A stretch of 63,328 nt of DNA, filler included, from Bonamia ostreae (Eukaryota): NCBI GenBank assembly GCA_040357525.1. It is 15 parts of 15 records of this genome, joined end to end, with 100 filler letters (N's around TTAATTAATTAA, not from the genome) between each part and the next. Parts side by side here need not be neighbours in the genome. Positions count along the whole stretch, not along the records: positions 21,361 to 25,494 come from JBDODL010000356.1; 14 more parts are not named here. One strand, given 5' to 3'. The stretch's first letter is position 1. The number at the start of each line of letters is the position of its first letter. Under the pieces are notes generated by a model, which saw only the letters and a program-made list of their open reading frames with translations, did not search any database and was not told the origin of the DNA. Below, one piece after another: positions 13,651 to 42,298 of this stretch. The position numbers were made by a program, and so were the translations under genes.

Positions 13651-16302
13651 TCATTTAACGATCGCATTTGGAGTTCCATCTTTATTGGAGCAACTTTGCG
13701 CATTAAGAATTCTCACTTGCTGAGCATAATCAGATTTCCCTGAATTCGAAAGCGTCTCAAGTTTGCGATGGCTTACTTTACTGTCCAAATAACGCTGTTT
13801 CAACTTATTTTGCATGTTGCTGCGGTACCTTTCATCCCTTCCATCTCTCTCATTGCCGTTGCCCAGGTTAGACCTTTTGTTGTTAGTAAATCACAAATCG
13901 TCGTTTAATGGCGAATTTGTCAAAAGCGAAACTTGTTGTTTGGCAATGCGCTCTTTGTGTTTTTAAGCGTTTTGTCCCGGGCAGCTTTCTTGATTTCGAA
14001 TATTTTGATATTTTTCTTATCGTTAGAACGAGGGAAACCTTGTGCAGATCAGATTGTTTCGCGTGTCGCTTCATCGTTTCTAGAGACTTAAAGCCGCGTT
14101 TGCAGAGAAGACAGGCGATTCGCTCGTAATCGAAGAAATCCTTTTTGCCACTGAACTCGAGTTGTCCCGTCAGCTGTTTTGTGTCCGCTACGAACTTGGA
14201 AACAACAGGCAACTTTGTTTTTTCGCTTTCTATCGGTGCCGAGGACGGGGGTTTAGGGATGTGCTCGGCAGCAGCGCCATGTCCTTTTAATTTTGTTCTA
14301 TTTACCCACAACAACGCCATGGCCTATTTTAGTGGCCTTCGCGACGTCTCGAAGTTGAGTAGCCTTTTTGGCGACCCTCCCAAATTTGGAAAATTTTTGT
14401 ACTTTGTCTCTACGTTCTGTTTTTTCTGTTTGTCGTGTGTTTAGGTTTTTTGCGGTTTTAGAATCGAGATTTTTTTATGATTTTTGCAGCTCATTACGTT
14501 TTTGCAAAAATTTAATTTTCAATACGATATTGTTTTTCCAAAAATAAAGTTTTCGCAATAACAAAATTTTAATTGTTCTATAACTAAAATGATATTCAGT
14601 TTTTAATTGTTCTACAATTTAAAGGATATTTTAATTCACAAAACTTATTCCATGATATTATTTCAATATAAAAGATATTACGAAATTTAAATATATATAA
14701 AAAATTTCCCAAACACCGAATGGGCTATTAACAGTTTAAAAAGTTTTTCGCTTGGAACATTGAAGAATGAAAAAATCAAACGCAGCGAGGATCGCTCAGA
14801 CAACAACGCAGAAGCAACTTGCTTTTGTGGTTTAAAGGCGACGGGCGTTTTTAACGGAATGGCGTGTGATGGCCGCGGCCTCTTCAAGCTTTCTGCTCGT
14901 AGCGGGAGCGGAGCGGCCGAATTGATTATTTTGACCGACGTCGATTCCACGCTGACGTTCGGGTTGCTCTGGTTTGCAACCTCGACGATGTAGCCAAAAC
15001 GGCCGACTTTAGCCGTCGCTTCGAACTCGTTTTTGGCCGCGTTCCATTCGAAGCAACTGCGGGATTGGGCGTGACAATATATTTGAGTGACAGGGTCGAA
15101 AAGGTACCCGGATTTGCCGTCAAAATAAAATCCGCTCTGTGCGTCGTAGACAAATCGTTCTTCTGTTTTGCTTTTTTCGCTGTTTTCGTTTCTTTCCAAA
15201 TCGTTTTGTCGTCTTTCCGTCTTTTCATCATTTTTCGTTTTGACGCGTCTTTTGTCGTTCTGCTCATCCGAACTCTCGCTGTAGTTCCGAGACCTTCTTT
15301 TGTGGCTGGAGTCGCGTCTTCTGTGCGATCGATGCGACTTGGACCTTCTTTCCGAATCTACATCTTTTTTCTCGTGTTTCCGGTGCCAGGCGCTCACTTC
15401 ATCTGTGGACACTCGACTCGACGTGTCTCGGACGTACTCCGTCAAGTCTTTGTCGAATCTCAGAGCCGCTTCCTTTTCCCGCAAGCGCAGTTTGACGTCG
15501 TAGAGCTCTTTCAAGTCTTTGGGCAAGTCCCTGGCGAGCCGCAAGACTAGTTTCCCGCCCAGCAACTCGAAGGGAGTCTCGCCGTGTTGCCGCAGAACGG
15601 AGTCTGTTTCGGCGGAGTCGTAGAACTCGACGAAGGCCATCGGAGGGCTTCCCGGGACTTTGCGGACGGAAACCGCCTTCACGGCCGCGACGGGGGCGAA
15701 AGTGTAGCGGATGTTGTCCTTCTCGGTTTCCGGCGGGAAGCCGGAAACCGACAAGACTTCACGCGCGAAAATGCCGTAGCGGAAGATGTTGTGCTCCATC
15801 GAATCCGCCGAAAACTTGCGCGAGAGTAGAATGGGCATCCCGTCCAAGGGCTTCGCCTCGGCCACTTCTCTCGGCGACTGGCACAAGTGGCAGCTGTCGC
15901 GTCGCGCAAAGTTTTTGTAGCGGCAATTTTTGCACACCCAATCGGTGTGCTTTTTCGCGCGCTTCTTCGCCGCGACGAAGAAGTCGAGGTCTTCGCCCTT
16001 CTGGAAGTAGTCCAGGTAAAGAGTCTTCCCTTTGACGGAGACGACTCCGGGGTCTTCCCTGTTTTCCACGAAGACTTTGGCGTCTGCCGCGGAAGCGAAC
16101 TCCGCCAAAGCCAGTTCGTGGTATGGCGGGGGCTGGATTTGCACGGTGGCTCCAGTGAACCGGGCCACGCTGTTGTTCAAGTCTTCTTCTGTGATGAACA
16201 TGTCGATTTCTCGAATAACGACTTTTTTGGTCGGGTTGCCAAAATATCTAAAAATCAACGAACAAACGGTTTGTTGGTTTTTATTCCCGAATAATCGCTC
16301 AT
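13651..16302 (-). CDS. RBM5/RBM10-like splicing regulator (RRM, RanBP2 ZnF, RRM, OCRE, C2H2 ZnF)
   Basis: DWVCKNCRYKNFARRDSCHLC, AFVEF, FVYDAQSGFYFDGKSGYLFDPVTQIY and ACLLCKRGFKSLETMKRHAKQSDLHK. First intron is 20 nt (16248-16267). Confidence 0.85.
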
Positions 16303-16423
16303 GAGAGCTTAAACTTTTATTTAAAATTTAGTCCAAAGCGCAAAAATAAAAACGAGATTTAGTAAGTTTCAGCTGATTTGCATAAAATAGAAACAGAAAG
16401 TTTTTACCGAAAACTCTTAAACG

Positions 16424-16800
16424 ATGTCCTACAAAAACAACAAGTTCTTTTGAACAAGTTTAAGTAACGGAGACCAAACAGAAGGGCGCACGCTGAAAGA
16501 AATGTCAAAATCAGACGACAAGAAAATCGCGCCTTTGTTGCAAAAGGTCGCATTCTTGAAGAACGTAACATTACTAAAACACTAAAGCTAACTCTCAGCA
16601 TTTCAGAAGAAAGCACAAAGCAGAACGACTTGCTCGACAGGATGGAAAGGGGGTTTGTAGAAAGGTCGTCGTCATTGGGCCAGAACTTGAAGCAGCTGAT
16701 AAAGTTATCTGGTTTTAATGGCCAACGCCATATGCATCATCTGTCCATGTTCATTTTCTTCGCGATTTGCTTCCTCTACTTTATTTCGAAACTTCGATAA
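16424..16800 (+). CDS. BET1: BET1-like Qc-SNARE (missed by ORF track)
   Basis: Introns 16444-16464 and 16565-16587 give LLQKVAFLKNLTLSISEESTKQNDLLDRME followed by a C-terminal TM (MFIFFAICFLYFI). Confidence 0.85.
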
Positions 16801-21100: not shown

Positions 21101-21838
21101 TTAGAGATGGACGAGGTGTCAGGGTTGCGTCGTACACCCTCGTACGAAGAGTTTATAGATTTAAAACTATAAACCCTGTTCGACTTTATTATGCCTATCG
21201 AAAATATTGAATTTTGTTACATCCCGAAAGTATATCATTACCAATTTTTTTATATTATGGNNNNNNNNNNNNNNNNNNNNNNNNNNNNNNNNNNNNNNNN
21301 NNNNTTAATTAATTAANNNNNNNNNNNNNNNNNNNNNNNNNNNNNNNNNNNNNNNNNNNNCTAGAAATGGTTAAAAAGAAAAGAAGGCATACCCTCAAAA
21401 ACATCTTTTGTGTTCAGAGCAACACTTTGTTTTGCATTTTATCCGTTCGAAGAAAAAATTATCGAATGTAATTATTTTTTGTTAATACACCCCGTGCCAC
21501 TTTATTATACCCACATATTTTTGATTTAAGATAACGAGGAGGAGGACATTTTCAAAATTTTTTAAAATTTAAATGTTTTTGAACGATAGCAATTTTTTGT
21601 AGGAGCCATTTTTGTCTAAAAATACAAATTTAAGTATTTTTCAATATTTCGGCTAAACAAGCGTGCCCATTTATGATACCCACATTTTTCAACTAAAAAT
21701 GTATTTTGACTTGTAAAGATTTTGACTTGTGTTTTTAAAATCATGATCAACAAAAATCGAGTTTACTCATGACATAAAAAAAATATTTAGATGTACTCAT
21801 TAAGCTTTAGATAATAGTAAAATTTAGTATAAACAATA

Positions 21839-22712
21839 ATGAGTGGCGCTGGAGTTGGAGTTTAATTTTAAAAAATCATTTTTAAGTACGACCTTTCATG
21901 CCCGACGTATTCGCCGAACGGCAAAATCTTTCAATTGGAATACGCCGCAAAGACGGTCAAGAAAAGCAGTTTGATCGCGGGGGCTCGCTGCAAGGACGGC
22001 GTCGTGTTGGTCGTCGAAAAGATGCTCGTTTCATTTTAAAACCGCAGCCCTCCAAAATGACAATGGATTCTTCCAACACGCGGATTTTCACTATCACCGA
22101 CCACACGGGAATGGCCGCGGCTGGCTTCATGGGCGACAGCAGGAAAATCGCCGCTCAGGCTAGAAAAGAGGTCTCTTCGTACAAAAAGCTTTTCTGCACA
22201 GAGATCCCCGCGAAGATTCTCAACGATCGCGTAGCGTTTTTTCTCCCAATAGCAAAGTGGATATGTCCATTCGTTCACCTTGAAGTGGGACATGCGTCCA
22301 TTCGGCGCAAGCGTTTTGATGGCCTCGCACACGGAAGACGGAGGCCCGCAACTTTTTTTGATCGACCCAAGCGGAGCGACGCATGTTTTATTTGAAAAGT
22401 TAGCAATTTTTCGCGAACGCCATCGGGAAAAATTCGGACGCGGCCAAAACAGAGCTCAGCAAACACGACTTCGGGGAGAAAACCTGCAAAGAAGCTCTGA
22501 ATTTGCTCTCTGAGATGTTTGACTTGATAAAAAAAAGAGTCCACAAGTTACACGAGGGCTCTTCGGGCAGAAAATTGAGTTTGGAAATGAGTTGGGTGGG
22601 CGAAGAAACCGGGCACCGCCATGAACGCGTGCCGAAAAGTTTGTTTGATGCAGCAATGCGCTATGGCGCGGAGGCGAAGCGCCGGGCTGAAATGGAAAGC
22701 GATTCTGAATAA
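21839..22712 (+). CDS. PSMA3: 20S proteasome alpha7 subunit, 5 micro-introns
   Basis: [42 protein letters not shown], AIGK and LEMSWVG. Introns 21860-21886, 22028-22047, 22231-22252, 22385-22403 and 22517-22537. Confidence 0.95.
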
Positions 22713-23999
22713 AAGATTCTGTGTAAACCGTTTTTCTGGAACCATTTTTGTTTAATATTCAACAATTCTCAAGTTTAATAACATTTCTGGAACTTCAACA
22801 AGTTTAATATTCGAAATAAAAGTTTAATATTCAAAATTCTCCAGTTCTTCATTCCCCATTCAAACAATAAATTAATTGTATTATTAATTGTTCTATTAAC
22901 ATAAAAAAGGTGAAGAGTTGCGACACCTGAATTTCCATAAAAATAAAAACAAAAATATAAATAATGTAAAAAATAAGTTTAAAACATTAACGACCTTTTT
23001 ATCCATATTTTGTCACAAAAGGTGAAATTTCATCTACTTCTGCAGTTTTTCTGACATTCAGCATCTTTTATTTCTAATTCTGATATTTCTTAGTTTATCG
23101 GTGTTAAAGTGGATTTCCATCCCATAGTTTGTGGAAAATTACTTTCTTTCTGATGATATTATATTCCTGCTATTTGCTGTTAAGTTTTAATGATTGTTTT
23201 CTTTGATTACAAATTCAACTAAACTGTAGAAATGTTTAGCAATGAAGGCCAAGAAGACCAGAACGATAAATTTAAAACAATCACAGAGGCAAGAAGAATA
23301 AAAAATATGGAATCAAGTCGGATTGAATGTAACTACTAAAAATTCTGATTAAGATTAAATTCGATAAAGCAACGCATATTTGAAAACGCCAACAAAAGAA
23401 AAAGCGATAAAGAATTAATCCAATTTTGGATGGTGCAGTAAAAGGATAGGAATTGAAAAGAAGTGATAATAAAAGACTTAAAATATAAATCAAAGAAGGG
23501 AAAAGGAGTAATATGGAACCTAATTGAGAAAGAGTTAAATTTTAAAAGGAAATCGATAAAAACAAAAATAGTGCCAACAAAGAAATCAAAGTATTATTAA
23601 GCTTGGAATGGAAAACCTTCCGAAAGTCTGAGAAGGCAACGCTCAATTGCGAGGCTTTAAAAAAGAATACAGTGCATTGCTATTTGAATGGAACTGTGAG
23701 GTTGGGAAAGAATCCAGGAGGTTTTAAAAATTATCAACACTCTGCACATTTCTAAAAATATGAAAAGGAAAAGAAAAGTGCTCAAATACGAAAAGAGATC
23801 AAAGTTGATAAATTAAATAAATATGAACGATAACTTTGACACATATTCTTAAATTAAATTAAGCGATAAATAAGCGTCAAATTTCGTCTTTATTTTATAA
23901 ATACAGTATTGAAAGAGCAGAGATAATCAAATCTTTATTAACGTTAAAAAGAGCAGAAATTTCGAAAATTCTATTTTAGCTAAAACCTATAAACCTTTA

Positions 24000-25078
24000 A
24001 TGTCCGAGGAACACATATTCGGAGTGCGCCAAAGAAGGATGAATCGGAACAACTCGGAAGACGCAACTGAGTTGACTCCGCTAAACTGGAACGAATTCTT
24101 CGACACGAAAACATTCTTAAAAATAGATCGCCGGAAAAACAACAACGGCGACGAAGAAGAAAAGGAGGCCGCCGAGAACTTTTGTGTGTACGAAGCTGGA
24201 AAAGTCGAGCCCGGAAAAGTTTTATATTGACAAAAGCCCTGTTTTGTGTTCATACACGGAGCCGGCCACACCGCTCTCTCTTTCGCGCTGCTCGCGCGAG
24301 AACTCAAAAGCGGGTTCCGCTGCGTGGCATTTGACCTCCGCGGCCACGGAGAGACGACGGTCCAATCTCCTTTGAACTTCTCACTGCAAGTTTCACTCGC
24401 TTCATTCCCGAAGACCCTCGCCAAGGACACTTTGTGTGTTCTCCGGCAACACCTGAAGAACACCGCGCCGATCGTTTTGGTCGGCCACAGTCTCGGCGGA
24501 GCAGTCGCAGTGGTAACATCAACTAAAGCCTAGCGGACTGCGAAGGACATGGAAGAGAGCGACAACATCGCTGCCGTCGCCGTGATAGATCTGTCGGAAG
24601 GAACGGCCATGTCTTCGCTCCCCGCGATGACGCGGATACTGCGGCAGACCCCGCACTCTTTCCATTCGCACGAAGAAGCCATCGCGTGGAGTCTGCAGCG
24701 GGGAAGCGAGCGCTCTCGCGAAGCCAACCGCGTGGCGATTCCCAGCCGACTGCAGCGATCCGATTCAGGCGCTCTGGAATGGCGCACCAACCTCTTCTCG
24801 ACGCGCGACTTCTGGGTGGACTGGTTCAAAGGTTTTTCCGACGACTTTGCCAACCTGCGCACGGCGCGGCTGCTGATTCTCGCGGAGACCGACAGACTCG
24901 ACAAGCCTTTGACCATCGCGCAGATGCAGGGCAGGTTCCAGCTCGAGGTGGTTTTTGAAATGTTTAGGTTCTCCCGGGCTCCGGGCACGAAGTGCACGAG
25001 AACAACCACAAAGCCGTCGAGAGGATTCTGAGGGAGTTCGTGGCGCGGAACAAGCAGTTCCGGAGCGATATTTTCTAG
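24000..25078 (+). CDS. PPME1: Protein phosphatase methylesterase 1 (PME-1)
   Basis: HGAGHTALSF, DLRGHGET, GHSLGG, EGTA, LLILAETDRLDKPLTIAQMQGRFQ and GHEVHE. Introns of 18, 24, 21 and 20 nt. Confidence 0.95.
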
Positions 25079-25709
25079 TGTCCGATTACAGTTTAGAGAG
25101 ATTTTTATCACAGCGATTGTTGTCTTTTTAAGATTTGTAAGGATATAAAACGTAAAAGATTCCGTAAAAGATTCTGTTATGTAAAGACGAAGCTTAAAAA
25201 TATTGGGGATCAGAAAGCGAAATTAAAAAATATTCATTGTTAGGAATTTTAAAGTTCACTCTCTTGTGCGCATACAATAATTTTTAAATAGACAATTTGT
25301 TACCAAAAAATGGACAGTTCATTTAAAGCGCTTATTAATTGATTTGAGTGAAAACGAAAGATAATTTCTAACATCGCATTCAATATGAAAAGTTAATACA
25401 TTGATATCTAAATAAATCGATAACAAAGAGAAGTTGACGATTATGATTGGGAAATCTCTTTTGTAGGCAAAAAACTTATCTAGAAATGGTTAAANNNNNN
25501 NNNNNNNNNNNNNNNNNNNNNNNNNNNNNNNNNNNNNNTTAATTAATTAANNNNNNNNNNNNNNNNNNNNNNNNNNNNNNNNNNNNNNNNNNNNGTTTTG
25601 TTATCAATTGTCCAAAAAATAGTAAAAAGCTTTCAGGATTTGTCTTCCATAAAAATTGATTTTTAATAATTGTTATCATGCTTTGTACTAAAAGGGTCGT
25701 TATGCTATA

Positions 25710-28226: not shown

Positions 28227-29315
28227 TTAATCTTTTATTTTTGGAGTAAAAGGCGTGTGGCCATAGCTCTTCCTTAGATCTTCTCCGACAGATCTGCCTC
28301 CGCGCCCTGTCATTTGGAGCATTCGCCTTATAAGTCATTATAAAAACATCCCTGCCGGCGACAGTCCACCAAACGGAGACATAGAAACGCCCGCAAATTT
28401 GCCGGGAGTACTCAGCGGAGTGCCGTTTCGACCATTCCGCGCTTTTTTGATTTTCTTGGCCAAGGAATGGTGCGCTTTCTCTTTTCGACTTTTTTCGAAC
28501 ATCTTGAACACTCTTTTGCTTTCCAAGTCGTCTTCGTCTTCCAGTCGTAAAGGCGTGTTCTGGATGCTCCCCCAAGTCACCAAAGGCGACACGTTCCCGG
28601 CACTAGGCTCTATCTGCGGCGTGCTTTCCACTAAGCGGAATCCGCCCACAGAAGGCGTTCCATTTTGCTCGATTCGGTCGATTTTGCTCTCAGAATTTTC
28701 GCGGGCGGTCGGCGTCTTGAACCGAGTGTTTTCGCTGCGGAAAGACGCCTTCTTCGCTTTGACAAAGCCTTCTTCGATCGCAGCTGGTTCCGATGACATA
28801 AACATCAAATGGTTCTTGCGAGAAACCTGCATCGGCTCTTCATCGCTGTTTCTGGCAACGCTTTTGTTTTCCGTCCAATCGGGCGCGTTTTTCTTCGCTT
28901 CCAAAAACAGTTTGCGCCCGGCGGAAGGCAGAGCGAGCGTCTGCCCGCGGACAGAAGAGTTGTTTTCCACCCACCAAAATTTCGCCGCGAGTTCGCGGTT
29001 GTTCTTCGCGACGATTTTCTGGAAAGCCAATTCGTCTGAAGACGCGTTGGAGCGCGCAAAATCGTCGAGCGATTTGTTTTTCGCTGAAACGGCGTTTTCG
29101 TCTTTGTCGATTTTGGGCAAAATGGGCGTCGGTGTTGGAGTCAAGATTTTGTCGTTGTTTTCGTAAACGGCGGAACTGTTTTGCAGTTCTTTTAGTAAAT
29201 CGTTTTTTCTGCGCAATGTTTCTTGATAAGGAAAATAATCTCGTTTTATTATTCTGTTCATTTGTTCTGCGTATTCGTCGTCTGTAAGAATTTTAATACC
29301 GTTTTCGTCGTCCAT
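28227..29315 (-). CDS. ESS2: Splicing factor ESS2/DGCR14
   Basis: IIKRDYFP, SLDDF, KNHLMF, NTRF, TPSVGGF and SPLVTWGSIQNTPLRL. A 21-nt last intron gives the terminal LRKSYGHTP. Confidence 0.92.
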
Positions 29316-29439
29316 TTCTGTTTTCGATGTTAAAGGGTTATCATATATTTAACAAACAGAAAAACCGGTTAATAAAATCTGATATATTGTATTGTTGCGA
29401 AAGCTTTGATTTGCTTTAATTCATCTTTGTTACCACATA

Positions 29440-29820: not shown

Positions 29821-32189
29821 CGTGTATTTTAATGACAGTTTTTTCGTTGAAATAAGGAGCAGCCATTAGAAGAGAAGAGACAAACTGACTACTAACACTG
29901 CCATTAATTTTAATCAATCCGCCGATAATTCCATTTTTTGAAGAAATCAATTTAAGAGGAAGATGAAAAGGTTTTTTAATATACTCGATTTTACAACCGA
30001 TTTCTCTTAATGTTTCTACCAAATCGTCTTTTTAATTATTGCAACAATCATTTTTCGTAACAATGATTTTTTGATAAATGTAATTTATAAAAACGGATTG
30101 GTCTCTTACATATTTGTTTGTTACCTTTTATATAAACTGTTTTGCCTTTTAATAAAGCGCATGTCGACATAATAAATCTTTTTAAATTAATTTGAATTGT
30201 TAAAGCAAATTTAAATAAAATGGAACATCGACAAAATTTTTGTGAACAAATTTTATGAACAACCTAGCAGTAGTACCAGAATTCCTTATATCGACGTTCA
30301 AATCACTGTTACATTTACTAAAATCTCCTTCATTGCCTTCAACAACGAGGACATCATTTTCCCATTTCATTTTTATCCCCAATTTCAACAGCGTTTTCAT
30401 CATCGCTTCAGTATCATCGCAAATCAACAGATTATGGATTTTGCAAGTACCTCTTCCAAGACCGGCCATTAGCAAAACTCGATTCGAAATCGATTTTGAG
30501 CCCGGTATCGAAATCGGGTTTGTACCTGCTTCAAAACTTGTTGCTACGGGATGATATGAAATGGAAGGATTCAATGTTTTTTCGATCAAGGAAATTTTAA
30601 TTGGTGTTGTGTCGCTATCTTATTATTTGGCGATTTTCAAAAATTGAAAAACGCATTTTGGGAAAATTTCAATTAAGACTAAATATAAAATCTAAATTAA
30701 TGTCTTCAGCTCAAGGTCGAGTTTTGGCACATCTACAAAGAGACGTTCAATTTGCCGCTTCCGTTTGAGCACTGACATTCAAAAGGAAACGTTGATAACT
30801 TTTATATCCGACGCAATGTAAACTTTTTAAACGTAAAGGAAACATTGAGAACTTTTATATCCGACCAATGTAAACTTTTTTAAACTTTTATCCAACATTG
30901 ATGGTCAAAACCAAACTTAAGCTTGGGACATGTAAATTATATGGAAATATGCTAATTAGTTCTGGATTTAACGATGGCTGCACGATTGGCAAAAATGCGC
31001 CAAACATTAAAACATAAAAAATTAACCTTTAAGAACGAGTCCAATCGATTTTAAGACTACAATTTGGACATAATCACTTTTATTCGATTTATTCTTCTTA
31101 TCAAGTCGCATAAAATTCTCGAATTCGGAAAATTTTATGTTTTGGAGCATTTTTAACGGAACGCGAGTTGGCAATTTGAATTCTAGAAATTAAAATTGCA
31201 ACAACCGATAAGCAAAGATATCAGTCTTCTATAATCTTCGTACTTTAAAACACCCAATTCAGTAGCTATCATCGATTCATATGACATTCCGATCGAAACA
31301 CATTCTCCATGCAAATATTGGTCCGAAACAGCTTCGATCGAATGTCCGATAGTGTGCCCGAAATTCAAAATTTTTCTTTTGTTACTCTCCCTTTCATCTT
31401 TTTCCACAATCTCTGATTTAAGCTTTATCGCTTTATAGATAATATCTAATAATTTTTGTTTCTCCGAAAAGCTTGATAATGACGTAATGCTGAAAGACTC
31501 GATAAACTCGAAAAAATCGCGATCGCAAACAGCGGCTATTTTGATTATTTCTGAGAAGCCGTTTCTGAAATGCCGTTCTGGCAAAGTCTTTAGCAGATTA
31601 ACGTCGACGAAGACTGCTTTCGGCGGATGAAAAGTGCCCACAATGTTTTTTGCTCTTAAAACATTAATTCCTTTTTTTGTATTGTTGGGACAGATAAACC
31701 CGTTTTCCCCCCAATTGACGAGTCGGCACAAGCCAAAACTGTAGTCGGAATTTGCACATATCTAATTCCTCTCATAAAAGTGGAGGCGACAAAACCAGTG
31801 ATGTCTCCAACAACACCTCCTTTCGTAAATTTGCGAAAAAAACCTCCCAAAGCGATGAGTACTGATTCTCTGTTGCAACCAAGTCTCAGCAGCCAATCTT
31901 CGATACGAGCTTTTGTTTTTCTTGTTTTCGAGTTTTCGGCGGGTTTGATCGAATAGATGAAAGTCTTTTGTTTTGATAAAATTTTTGTTGTGAAAACATT
32001 CAAATCGTTATTTTGCAAAATGGAAAAAAGGTCGTTTCCATATAAATTTTTTACATTATCGTCTGTGATAATTGCGTAAAATGGCGCAGAAACGAGCTTT
32101 TTGAGGTTTTTGACAATGTCTTTGAAAATGTTTTCGATGAAAATTATGTTATAATTTTTCAGTCTAATAGGATCATGTTTCGAAGCCAT
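29821..32189 (-). CDS. ARO1: AROM polypeptide, N-terminal DHQ synthase fused to EPSP synthase (3' truncated)
   Basis: [42 protein letters not shown] and DKKN splice in frame to [17 protein letters not shown] and [12 protein letters not shown]. Confidence 0.92.
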
Positions 32190-32414
32190 TTTTAAACGGC
32201 TGAATTGCTAATTTTAGAAATTTAGTTATTGTTAAGTTTATTGATATAGTTTGTTTTTTAGATTAATAAATGGCAAAAACTTTATTGTCAATTATGGACA
32301 TATCAACAAAAAGCTATATCCTAAACATAGAATAAATGAATATAAAAATAATATAAGCACCACAAAAATATATCAACTAGCTATAACATTTTATAAATTA
32401 GCTTTAGAGCTTAA

Positions 32415-41287: not shown

Positions 41288-42298
41288 CTATTTATATAAA
41301 TCTGACATTTCGGAAAGCCACCAGTAAAAAGAAAAATGGAGGCCAATCGTGGCAAATTTTTGTTTTTTAAGAAATTCCTTTTTAAATGTAAAATTCATTC
41401 ATCGTTAAAAAATACCAAAACGTCATGAGCAGGATTCGAACCTACGAGGGCAAACGCCCATTCGATTTCTAATCGAACGCCTTAACCACTCGGCCACCAT
41501 GACAACATTAAAATTAAAAATTATTTGTTTATAATAAAATCAAACCTTCGCCATTTTGGTTTGAACGAACACTTTTTCTATCGTTTCTTTTTCCAAGTAG
41601 TTTTCTAATCTTTTGGATTTTTCAATTTCCCCATAATACATCTTTGAAAATCTTCCTAATTTAAATAACAGTTTTAGGTTTTATGTTATTTGGAATGTAT
41701 TTTGATAATTCGAACAAACAATAAAAAATGAAATAACTTTTTACCTGTAATTCCAACATTTCCAGTGTATCCAGTTATCAATTTTAAGGAATCGGGAGAA
41801 ATTTTATAACCGACTTCTTCTTCGACTTCTTCGGAGACTATTTCTTCCAGATTTTTGTTCTTGTCTATTAAACCGGCAACCAATTCATAGGTGCATCCGA
41901 ATTTGTAGTTATTGCTGTTTTTGTCAATTTTATTTTTACGCGAATAAGAAGCAAAAACAGGTGGTCTTTTTGTGTTTGTGTTTTTCATAAAATTGGAAAA
42001 ATTAAATCGAATAAGTTCGGAAACGCATTTAAAATATTTAATAAACCTAAATTGTTTTACGACGAGAAAACTCTTTCTTTCCAAATGGTATAACAGCACA
42101 GAAACGGATTCATGACATTCAAGGAAATCCCATTTTTTATCAATTCCATTCTATTTTTAAACAAGTAAAAAAGTAAACTTGGCGGTAAAAAAGTGTTTTT
42201 GGTTTAAAGAAATTTGATTTTTTGCAGTTTTTTATTTCAATGTTTTCTATTTTGCTAAAATATTTTTTGCAATGCAAAGTTTTTCTTATAAATGCCAT
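41288..42298 (-). CDS. NUDT14: NUDT14-like UDP-sugar diphosphatase (Nudix)
   Basis: FKPKTLFYRQ|NGIDKKWDFLECHESVSVLLY..VVKQFR|PPVF..TYELVAGLIDK..EEVEEEVGY. Last exon reads EFLKKQKFATIGLHFSFYWWL. Confidence 0.88.
41421..41503 (-). tRNA. tRNA-Ser(AGA), 83 nt, inside the last NUDT14 intron
   Basis: Full cloverleaf: GTCATGG/TCATGAC acceptor, GCC-GAGTGGTTAA-GGC D arm, TTCGA-TTAGAAA-TCGAA anticodon arm, long variable arm, GTAGG-TTCGAAT-CCTGC T arm and G discriminator, followed by TTTT. Confidence 0.97.

Follow-up and report, generated by a model that had tools for sequence, protein, structure and literature searches.

The window analysed here, 63,328 nucleotides (nt) of the genome of Bonamia ostreae, a haplosporidian that parasitizes oysters, consists of 15 contigs of about 4.1-4.2 kb each with spacers between them, and the two genes at its centre, PSMA3 (proteasome alpha-7) and PPME1 (PP2A methylesterase), lie on the part at 21361-25494. 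Both genes are interrupted by very short GT-AG introns (Table 1). We describe these introns and the size class to which they belong, the two classes into which their 5' splice sites (donors) fall, and two genes for U1 small nuclear RNA (snRNA) whose 5' ends match these two classes.

A first-pass annotation of this DNA had proposed nine introns in PSMA3 and PPME1, and all nine are present with GT-AG ends at the claimed sizes, the fourth PPME1 intron having a 17-nt alternative that scores 4 bits lower. When all nine are removed, translation gives stop-free proteins of 254 and 331 amino acids (aa). The five-intron PSMA3 scores 326.6 bits with a profile built from 42 homologs (all those 225-290 aa long among 149 collected) and aligns to it without gaps over residues 1-252, and one of its exons is 100% identical to a deposited Bonamia ostreae protein, P0001. 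Against the same profile, PSMA3 with its fifth intron retained scores 315.7 bits, with a 7-aa insertion and 11 bits lost, and P0001, from which only the 22-nt intron has been removed, scores 152.6 bits and is out of frame at both ends. The fourth PPME1 intron gives 347.7 bits as 20 nt and 343.8 bits as 17 nt with a profile of 9 homologs, the shorter form being favoured by the first gene-model run (0.78) and the longer by a later one (0.98). The annotation had also held that the conserved proteins are restored solely by intron removal; two of the nine introns (22517-22537 and 24390-24413) have lengths that are multiples of three and contain no stop, so that an open frame does not need their removal. 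A further gene, putatively BET1-like and named after the annotation's label, has two introns of the sizes that had been claimed, but lies outside the 21839..25078 interval in which it had been placed.

Evidence on splicing comes from run X1, a set of RNA-like contigs whose RNA nature is guessed and whose 170 pieces and 11 loose ends are represented here by 8 and 6, respectively; these contigs give no cover at 21775-22050, 22603-22740 and 23017-23982, gaps that are evidence of nothing, and the BET1-like gene falls outside the stretch compared. One contig omits 22 letters at 22236, the third PSMA3 intron (depth 25000/25000), and loose ends at 24389 and 24414, which flank the 24-nt PPME1 intron, carry the adjoining exon letters, so that splice joints occur among the pieces listed for two of the nine introns. 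Two pieces among those listed end exactly at exon ends, 22516 and 24218, the one that stops at 22516 in PSMA3 carrying 5 further unaligned letters. As a separate observation, one X1 contig retains the third PPME1 intron and differs at two adjacent intron bases, 24521-24522; the difference could be an allele, another isolate or an error. That the segments are assembly errors or pseudogene frameshifts would suit a fragmented assembly and the read-through of the 19- and 20-nt segments in P0001, but the absence of two segments from the RNA-like contigs refutes it for two of the nine introns, removal restores gapless homology, and the length peak described below exists for GT-AG alone; we give this explanation practically no chance of being right. 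The tiny introns of Bonamia are real introns.

Table 1. Genes, introns and snRNAs discussed in the text (positions count along the window unless a contig of assembly G000 is named; posteriors are those of the gene model)
Feature	Position	Strand	Description
PSMA3 (proteasome alpha-7) gene	21839..22712	+	6 exons, 254 aa; translation, gapless match to 42 homologs
PSMA3 intron 1	21860..21886	+	27 nt, GTTT donor, in-frame stop; posterior 0.89
PSMA3 intron 2	22028..22047	+	20 nt, GTTT donor; not removed in P0001; posterior 0.95
PSMA3 intron 3	22236..22257	+	22 nt, GTTT donor; spliced in RNA-like contig
PSMA3 intron 4	22385..22403	+	19 nt, GTTT donor; not removed in P0001; posterior 1.0
PSMA3 intron 5	22517..22537	+	21 nt, GTTT donor; multiple of three, stop-free
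PPME1 (PP2A methylesterase) gene	24000..25078	+	5 exons, 331 aa; translation, profile match
PPME1 intron 1	24219..24236	+	18 nt, GTTT donor, in-frame stop; one of the 2 introns this long among 624; posterior 1.0
PPME1 intron 2	24390..24413	+	24 nt, GTTT donor; multiple of three, stop-free; spliced in RNA-like contigs
PPME1 intron 3	24513..24533	+	21 nt, GTAA-class donor, in-frame stop; posterior 0.87
PPME1 intron 4	24948..24967	+	20 nt, GTGG donor; alternative 17 nt from 24951, GTTT donor
BET1-like gene	16424..16800	+	110 aa; outside 21839..25078
BET1-like intron 1	16444-16464	+	21 nt, GTT class
BET1-like intron 2	16565-16587	+	23 nt, GTAA class
U1b	G000:C1288:766-921	-	Rfam U1 match, 47.4 bits, E 3.5e-10
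U1a	G000:C414, from ~3711	+	second U1; cut by contig end; 23.5 bits
U2 (L001)	G000:C951:368-521	-	Rfam match

Beyond the window, introns were called in the genome assembly (G000: 10.29 Mb in 7503 contigs, incomplete) with a two-strand gene model based on forward-backward posteriors, free of any splice-site matrix and with a prior that is flat over lengths of 12-150 nt. The model was run on 780 kb, about 8% of the assembly with a bias to long contigs (the 15 contigs of the window, and contigs C1 and C3-C80, each in full or for its first 10 kb), and contig C2 (locus L004) was excluded as a possible mitochondrial piece. Confident GT-AG calls at 17 to 25 nt number 3, 2, 48, 81, 33, 32, 27, 16 and 16 in order of length, whereas CT-AG, GT-AC and GA-TG controls give at most 16 calls at any length from 12 to 44 nt; the GT-AG peak at 19-25 nt, with its mode at 20, thus lacks a counterpart in the false dinucleotide pairs and is beyond chance. 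A second run, with lengths learned and still no motif, called 624 introns of 17-30 nt at posteriors above 0.8, of which 103 measure 19 nt, 184 measure 20 nt and 289 are no longer than 20 nt, and about 970 introns of up to 30 nt are expected in the modelled DNA. A held-out set of 34 parasite-like loci from other searches, from which 31 low-CpG loci were kept apart, holds 45 introns with the same floor of 19 nt and mode of 20 nt, 37 of them with GTT donors. The range of 18-27 nt first given for the tiny introns needs correction at its lower edge, which lies at 19 nt, 18 nt being rare (2 of 624).

The model misses stop-free introns whose length is a multiple of three and cannot count long introns; above 45 nt its calls in the 780 kb do not exceed the controls (256 versus 187-270). 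Longer introns probably exist too, so that the tiny introns form a short-intron mode and not an exclusive size class. A model-free count of GTTT..HAG spacings over 461 kb, which gave a weak peak of 1.22 at 20 nt within the swings of the reversed control, was set aside for the gene model. With their GT-AG ends, the introns of Bonamia are best read as ordinary U2-type spliceosomal introns at the short limit, with a mode of 20 nt and a floor of about 19 nt.

No donor matrix was used in calling these introns, and GTT begins 509 of the 624 donors (~82%), in line with the GTTT-like majority reported from the window, GTAA begins 67 (~11%), and 48 are of other kinds. The two words behave as separate classes: A at +4 follows A at +3 in 67 of 83 donors (background 0.52, p = 1e-7), the log odds ratio between +3 and +4 is 4.23, where other neighbouring positions give 0.5-1.9, a mixture of two classes improves the Bayesian information criterion by 192 units (-32 to +25 in 10 background samples), and every +3/+4 type but TN and AA falls to 0.14-0.36 of the non-coding GT background. 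G at -1 is richer in the GTAA class (36/67, versus 144/509 in the GTT class; p = 6e-5), a contrast that persists when the loci are split in half, when each strand is taken separately and at posteriors above 0.97, and the GTAA class also has more U at +7 (40/67, p = 0.004) and at +8 (44/67, p = 3e-5) than non-coding GTAA. Both classes co-occur in the same loci (41 of 43), and GTT is dominant among calls of 41-150 nt as well (68% with T at +3).

The 5' ends of two U1 genes correspond to these two classes. U1b begins (C)AAAACAUC, with CAAAAC, complementary to GUUUU, where U1 has ACUUAC; the bases before its helix H, CAAAACAUC, keep the AC that pairs with GU and place A's opposite intron positions +3 to +5, which would allow pairing with GUU(U) donors. 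U1a begins AACUUACCUG and keeps the canonical ACUUACCUG, preceded by A's. The AC that pairs with GU stands at an equal distance before helix H in both genes, which are ~75% identical where aligned. On average, GTT donors form 5.3 pairs with U1b versus 3.8 with canonical U1, and GTAA donors 3.2 pairs with U1b versus 5.8 with U1a (partly by construction). The excess of G at -1 and of U at +7 and +8 in GTAA donors matches the C and the leading A's of U1a, and the G at -1 can pair with U1a while U1b is unable to pair there. The altered U1 that the annotation had supposed thus has a gene behind it, changed in the same register as ACUUAC; the canonical U1a and the GTAA minority were unforeseen. We hypothesize that U1 has been duplicated with a division of labour in which U1b would serve GTT and U1a GTAA donors, and regard this as the probable state of affairs; that U1b accounts for the GTT donors at all we consider quite likely.

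U1b folds as a U1 cloverleaf, with helix H, stem-loops (SL) 1 to 3, the Sm site and SL4, and in its predicted fold the 5' end and the Sm site are single-stranded (z -2.67, matched by 2 of 200 shuffles). Its loops read GAUCAAGAAG and CAUGGCAC, the SL1 loop, where U1-70K would bind, being that of the Rfam consensus. Upstream, the promoter motif AATCCCATAAATTT, with a TATA box 15-17 nt later, is common to U1a, U1b, U3, U4 and U5 (promoter-carrying loci L002, L048, L051, L055 and L129), a layout that resembles the upstream sequence element and TATA box of plant snRNA genes; a search of G000 for the motif gave 8 matches, versus 0 in the reversed control, namely these five genes and three loci without an RNA match. 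The contigs of U1a and U1b are parasite-like, with observed-to-expected (o/e) CpG ratios of 1.56 and 1.70 and GTT introns of 20-22 nt, and that of U1a also has an eRF1 gene with a 20-nt GTAA intron.

Searched against G000 as DNA, U1b found itself alone, and U1a was the sole U1 in the 12 loci scanned out of 35 matches to ACTTACCTG, 34 of which lie on contigs numbered above 800. Eleven small contigs (L118-L128) with canonical CAGGTAAGT have CpG o/e ratios of 0.51-1.02, versus a median of 1.45 in the modelled loci, and are probably residual host DNA in the assembly. In metagenomes, a loose pattern for U1b-like genes gave 120 loci among the matches listed, none of them U1-like. U1b was also considered as a U11 of the minor (U12) spliceosome and rejected, as it has no U11 match at E<=1, aligns to U1a, and has no ATCC donors to serve among the 25 commonest +3 to +6 words of the intron calls.

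At the 3' end of the 624 introns, A peaks at -8, where TRA occurs 98 times versus 45 in shuffled introns and YTRA 69 times versus 23, and TRA with its A at -9 to -6 is found in 240 of the 624 (175 +/- 11 shuffled); in a 20-nt intron this branch-like A lies ~12 nt from the 5' end. The position of the branch motifs, which had been placed 5-8 nt before the AG, is thus upheld, but CTRAC is rare (4 at -8 and 4 at -7). The final 12 nt avoid internal AG (78 versus 148), and the reported lack of a polypyrimidine tract is borne out by the 53% pyrimidines at -14 to -4. Two other proposals of the annotation fall away: A at -3, found in 312 of 624 introns (50%), is at background once G is excluded (53% among non-GAG AG sites), so that the A-rich acceptors are compositional, and the supposed self-complementarity of T-rich and A-rich halves makes no useful difference to the folding energy (-0.46 kcal/mol in introns and -0.42 in shuffles, with 66% of introns unfolded).

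The sharp 19-nt floor and the fixed branch position would also accord with a donor choice made mainly by U6, U5 and geometry (the fixed branch distance), in which U1 plays only a small part and GTT comes from an altered U6 box or from AT drift. The lack of +5G in either class suggests a differing contact with the ACAGAG of U6, and no U1 was identified in Mikrocytos (PMC10245619; papers are cited in this text for those parts of them that were available). This account is at odds with the retention of two U1 genes, U1-70K, U1-C and LUC7 and with the +3/+4 coupling, which drift would not yield, and the dominance of GTT among calls of 41-150 nt indicates that the GTT code is not tied to tiny size; we consider it improbable, and divided labour between two U1 genes remains our preferred reading.

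Among the other spliceosomal parts, U4 (94.4 bits) and U5 (68.2 bits) both pass their Rfam cut-offs, and the U5 loop is intact. U2, found as a single copy, is weak (21 bits, below cut-off) and keeps GUAGUA. Rfam searches and five motif searches found no U6 in an assembly that is incomplete, an absence that is no evidence. Of the proteins, U1-C is conserved (63.4 bits), U1-70K scores 69 bits in one match to its N-terminal part, the two LUC7 matches are complementary halves on two contigs and not clear paralogs, the C-terminal part of U2AF65 is present at 154.9 bits, and an SF1-like gene (42 bits; L276, G000:C2601) has three 21-nt GTT introns. This inventory supports neither a loss of U2AF65 nor a broadly reduced spliceosome. 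The window also holds an open frame of 546 aa at 14690-16327 (-) with OCRE, RRM and RanBP zinc finger domains, a set from which we take it to be RBM5/RBM10-like, and an ESS2-family gene at 28341-29348 (-); both are non-core spliceosomal factors, which argues against a strongly reduced spliceosome.

Some features of these loci are recorded as such. The U2 gene has a 24-nt insertion in stem I, which contains a 15-nt GT..AG stretch starting GTTT, two extra U's ahead of GUGUAGUA, and GCC in place of the GCU that usually pairs with the U6 triad; it shows no promoter motif upstream within its locus and possibly overlaps an antisense open reading frame (ORF). At the U5 gene (L051, G000:C1871) two copies of the promoter motif lie upstream, and promoter spacing would put the start ~30 nt upstream of the Rfam match, which would add a 5' hairpin. 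Weak matches of the U6 searches in L023, L025 and L026 share a dispersed, repeat-like sequence. The SF1-like gene has one in-frame TAA that no intron explains and that could be a sequencing error, a pseudogene or an unrecognised intron. In the supplement of the Ascetosporea genome paper (PMC11069148, sheet 'B.ostr. gains'), the gene cluster OG0001317, 'U1 snRNA binding', is listed as gained in B. ostreae; either a U1 protein that has been duplicated or a gene model split in two could account for the entry.

The division of labour could have come about in the following way. Most likely the U1 gene was copied, and CUU turned into AAA at the 5' end of one of the two. The majority of donors, subject to AT pressure and shortening, would now follow the GUU(U) code of U1b, and about a tenth would still depend on U1a through G/GUAA and U's at +6 to +8. 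U2 would pair loosely at the branch A, whose place is fixed ~8 nt before the 3' end, and the first AG after this A would be used, a bare AG with no pyrimidine tract. On balance, we lean towards a single major spliceosome served by two specialised U1 snRNPs, which would be a natural intermediate in the change of a splice-site code through duplication of U1, with introns migrating singly, possibly with an altered U6 contact at +5. The match between U1 ends and donors is well supported in sequence; we infer that both genes are transcribed, loaded into snRNPs and serve their own classes, a functional role for which they are candidates.

Several observations weigh against this reading. U1b lies below the Rfam gathering threshold of 69.5 bits (a shortfall that is partly due to its changed 5' end), its SL2 loop (that of U1A) has one change, AUGGCAC instead of AUUGCAC, and its distal stem I is weakened; U1a is truncated by its contig, with a score of 23.5 bits; and the 5' ends of both are inferred from promoter spacing (44-46 nt). 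A count of paired changes between U1a and U1b gave no two-sided change and no excess over shuffles, although it rests on two sequences with a structure that is wrong in one helix and is uninformative. To these are added the missing U6 and the finding of only one U1-70K and one strong U1-C locus. On the side of the introns, 111 of 118 calls with a length that is a multiple of three hold a stop, which reflects the bias of the model against stop-free introns of this kind; +5G occurs in only 1 of 67 GTAA donors, although the C of U1a should pair with it; the GTT class is weak beyond +4 (+5T, p = 0.09, and +6G, p = 0.95, versus non-coding GTT); U at -1 is not enriched in GTT over GTAA donors; the contrast between the classes at +7 and +8 is not significant in every split; and the held-out loci have GTAA in 1 of 45 introns where ~5 were expected.

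The scarcity of GTAA in the held-out loci, together with its occurrence at 0.93 of the non-coding background frequency and without +5G, would fit U1b as the sole working splicing U1, as in Entamoeba, with U1a a relic or non-splicing RNA and GTAA donors tolerated through contacts with U5, U6 and the exon. The extra G at -1 could then reflect contacts of U5 loop 1, and LUC7 paralogs provide a known case of two donor classes that do not depend on two U1s (PMC11842720). Against this stand the A's that GTAA sets opposite A at +3 and +4 of U1b, with the low pair count given above, the 3-6 fold depletion of GTAT, GTAC and GTAG that GTAA does not share, the intact promoter and loops of U1a, and LUC7 matches that are not clear paralogs; we regard a sole U1b as unlikely, if deserving of serious attention. 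Conversely, the low score of U1b and the changes in both of its protein-binding stem-loops are what a decayed or minor variant would show, like human U1 variants with changed 5' ends, which amount to <0.1% of U1 (PMC8457000), in which case U1a, U-rich-binding proteins and an altered U6 would read all donors. The conservation of U1-C agrees with this, as do the tiny introns of nucleomorphs (PMC6461891) and Stentor (PMC9505925), which go with canonical U1 ends. Yet U1b is altered precisely at the bases that face +3, +4 and +5, in a way that suits the majority donor, and retains the AC for GU, its promoter, helix H, Sm site and SL4 are intact, two of the 3.8 pairs of GTT donors with U1a alone come from GU, and U1a leaves unexplained the requirement for U at +3 in 82% of introns, so that a minor U1b seems to us rather doubtful and two U1 genes with divided labour the better account.

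Three further observations concern the neighbourhood in the window. DHQ synthase and EPSP synthase domains stand adjacent at 29821-32207 (-), probably as parts of an AROM-type gene of the shikimate pathway; an 83-nt tRNA gene lies at 41421-41503 (-); and an ORF at 10898-11299 (+) has two weak, below-cut-off matches to knottin-type Pfam families and is probably a cysteine-rich stretch.

One puzzle is by what route a genome with thousands of introns can alter its 5' splice-site code and still splice. Entamoeba represents an end state with one rewritten U1, and Bonamia appears as a step between, with the old and the new U1 together, so that the duplication route becomes testable from haplosporidian sequence data. 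Since many introns are of 20 nt or less and two of these are left in P0001, the one deposited protein that was compared, a lower minimum intron length may be needed to re-annotate the gene models of this species and to revise its counts of gene loss. In the available part of the Ascetosporea genome paper (PMC11069148), B. ostreae is said only to carry canonical introns. Within the literature covered, which left subscription journals mostly outside, the accessible parts report no intron sizes, donors or U1 genes for Bonamia, although older single-gene papers on haplosporidians may mention short introns, and no case of two U1s with matching donor classes.

The closest likeness is to Entamoeba, which has GUUUGU(U) donors and a co-evolved U1 with ACAAAC, a variant U1 being also known in Mastigamoeba (Roy and Bowser, bioRxiv 10.1101/2022.06.08.495308, in its accessible part). 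Both Entamoeba and Bonamia have U at +3 and +4 and a U1 5' end changed to A's that restores pairing (AAAAC opposite GUUUU in Bonamia), and E. invadens likewise has its branch point ~8 nt from the 3' end. In Entamoeba, however, each species has a single U1 candidate, the donor is strict (GUUUGU in 88-90%) and keeps +5G, introns are few, U1-C is diverged and the spliceosome is reduced, whereas Bonamia, of an unrelated lineage, has two U1 genes in place of a single one, two loose donor classes in place of a near-uniform donor, no +5G, many introns of 19-25 nt and a conserved U1-C. Mikrocytos mackini and Paramikrocytos, which like Bonamia belong to the class Ascetosporea, have GT-AG introns of 16-17 nt, likewise very short and sharply bounded below (PMC10245619); the 224 introns of Mikrocytos are uniform in length and conserved in sequence, and only U2, U4 and U6 and 17-19 proteins were identified there, while Bonamia has about 970 expected introns of up to 30 nt in the modelled 780 kb alone, broader lengths, degenerate sequence, U1 and U5, and thus neither 16-17 nt introns of conserved sequence nor a strongly reduced spliceosome of the mikrocytid type. 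The introns of Stentor (15-16 nt) and of chlorarachniophyte nucleomorphs (18-23 nt) share the size class and weak signals, and those of Stentor a branch A fixed near the 3' end; they differ in the canonical 5' motif of their U1, and the available parts of the two papers cited above report no GUU code or second U1.

Fritillaria borealis (PMC13326754) resembles Bonamia in having two intron codes, a major spliceosome and a duplicated recognition factor, but in Fritillaria the duplicated factors are U2AF subunits and two versions of U1 have identical 5' ends; a diverged U1 duplicate, which the authors of that paper mention as the path that Fritillaria did not follow, is what is seen in Bonamia. 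U1-like RNAs with differing 5' ends occur together in one genome also among the human variant U1s and in the U1/U11 pair; the human variants, unlike U1b, are scarce and match no majority donor class (PMC8457000), and U11 belongs to a separate spliceosome, whereas U1b stays close in sequence to U1a. Tiny introns and a co-evolved single U1 were thus already known, and two U1 genes with matching donors are new.

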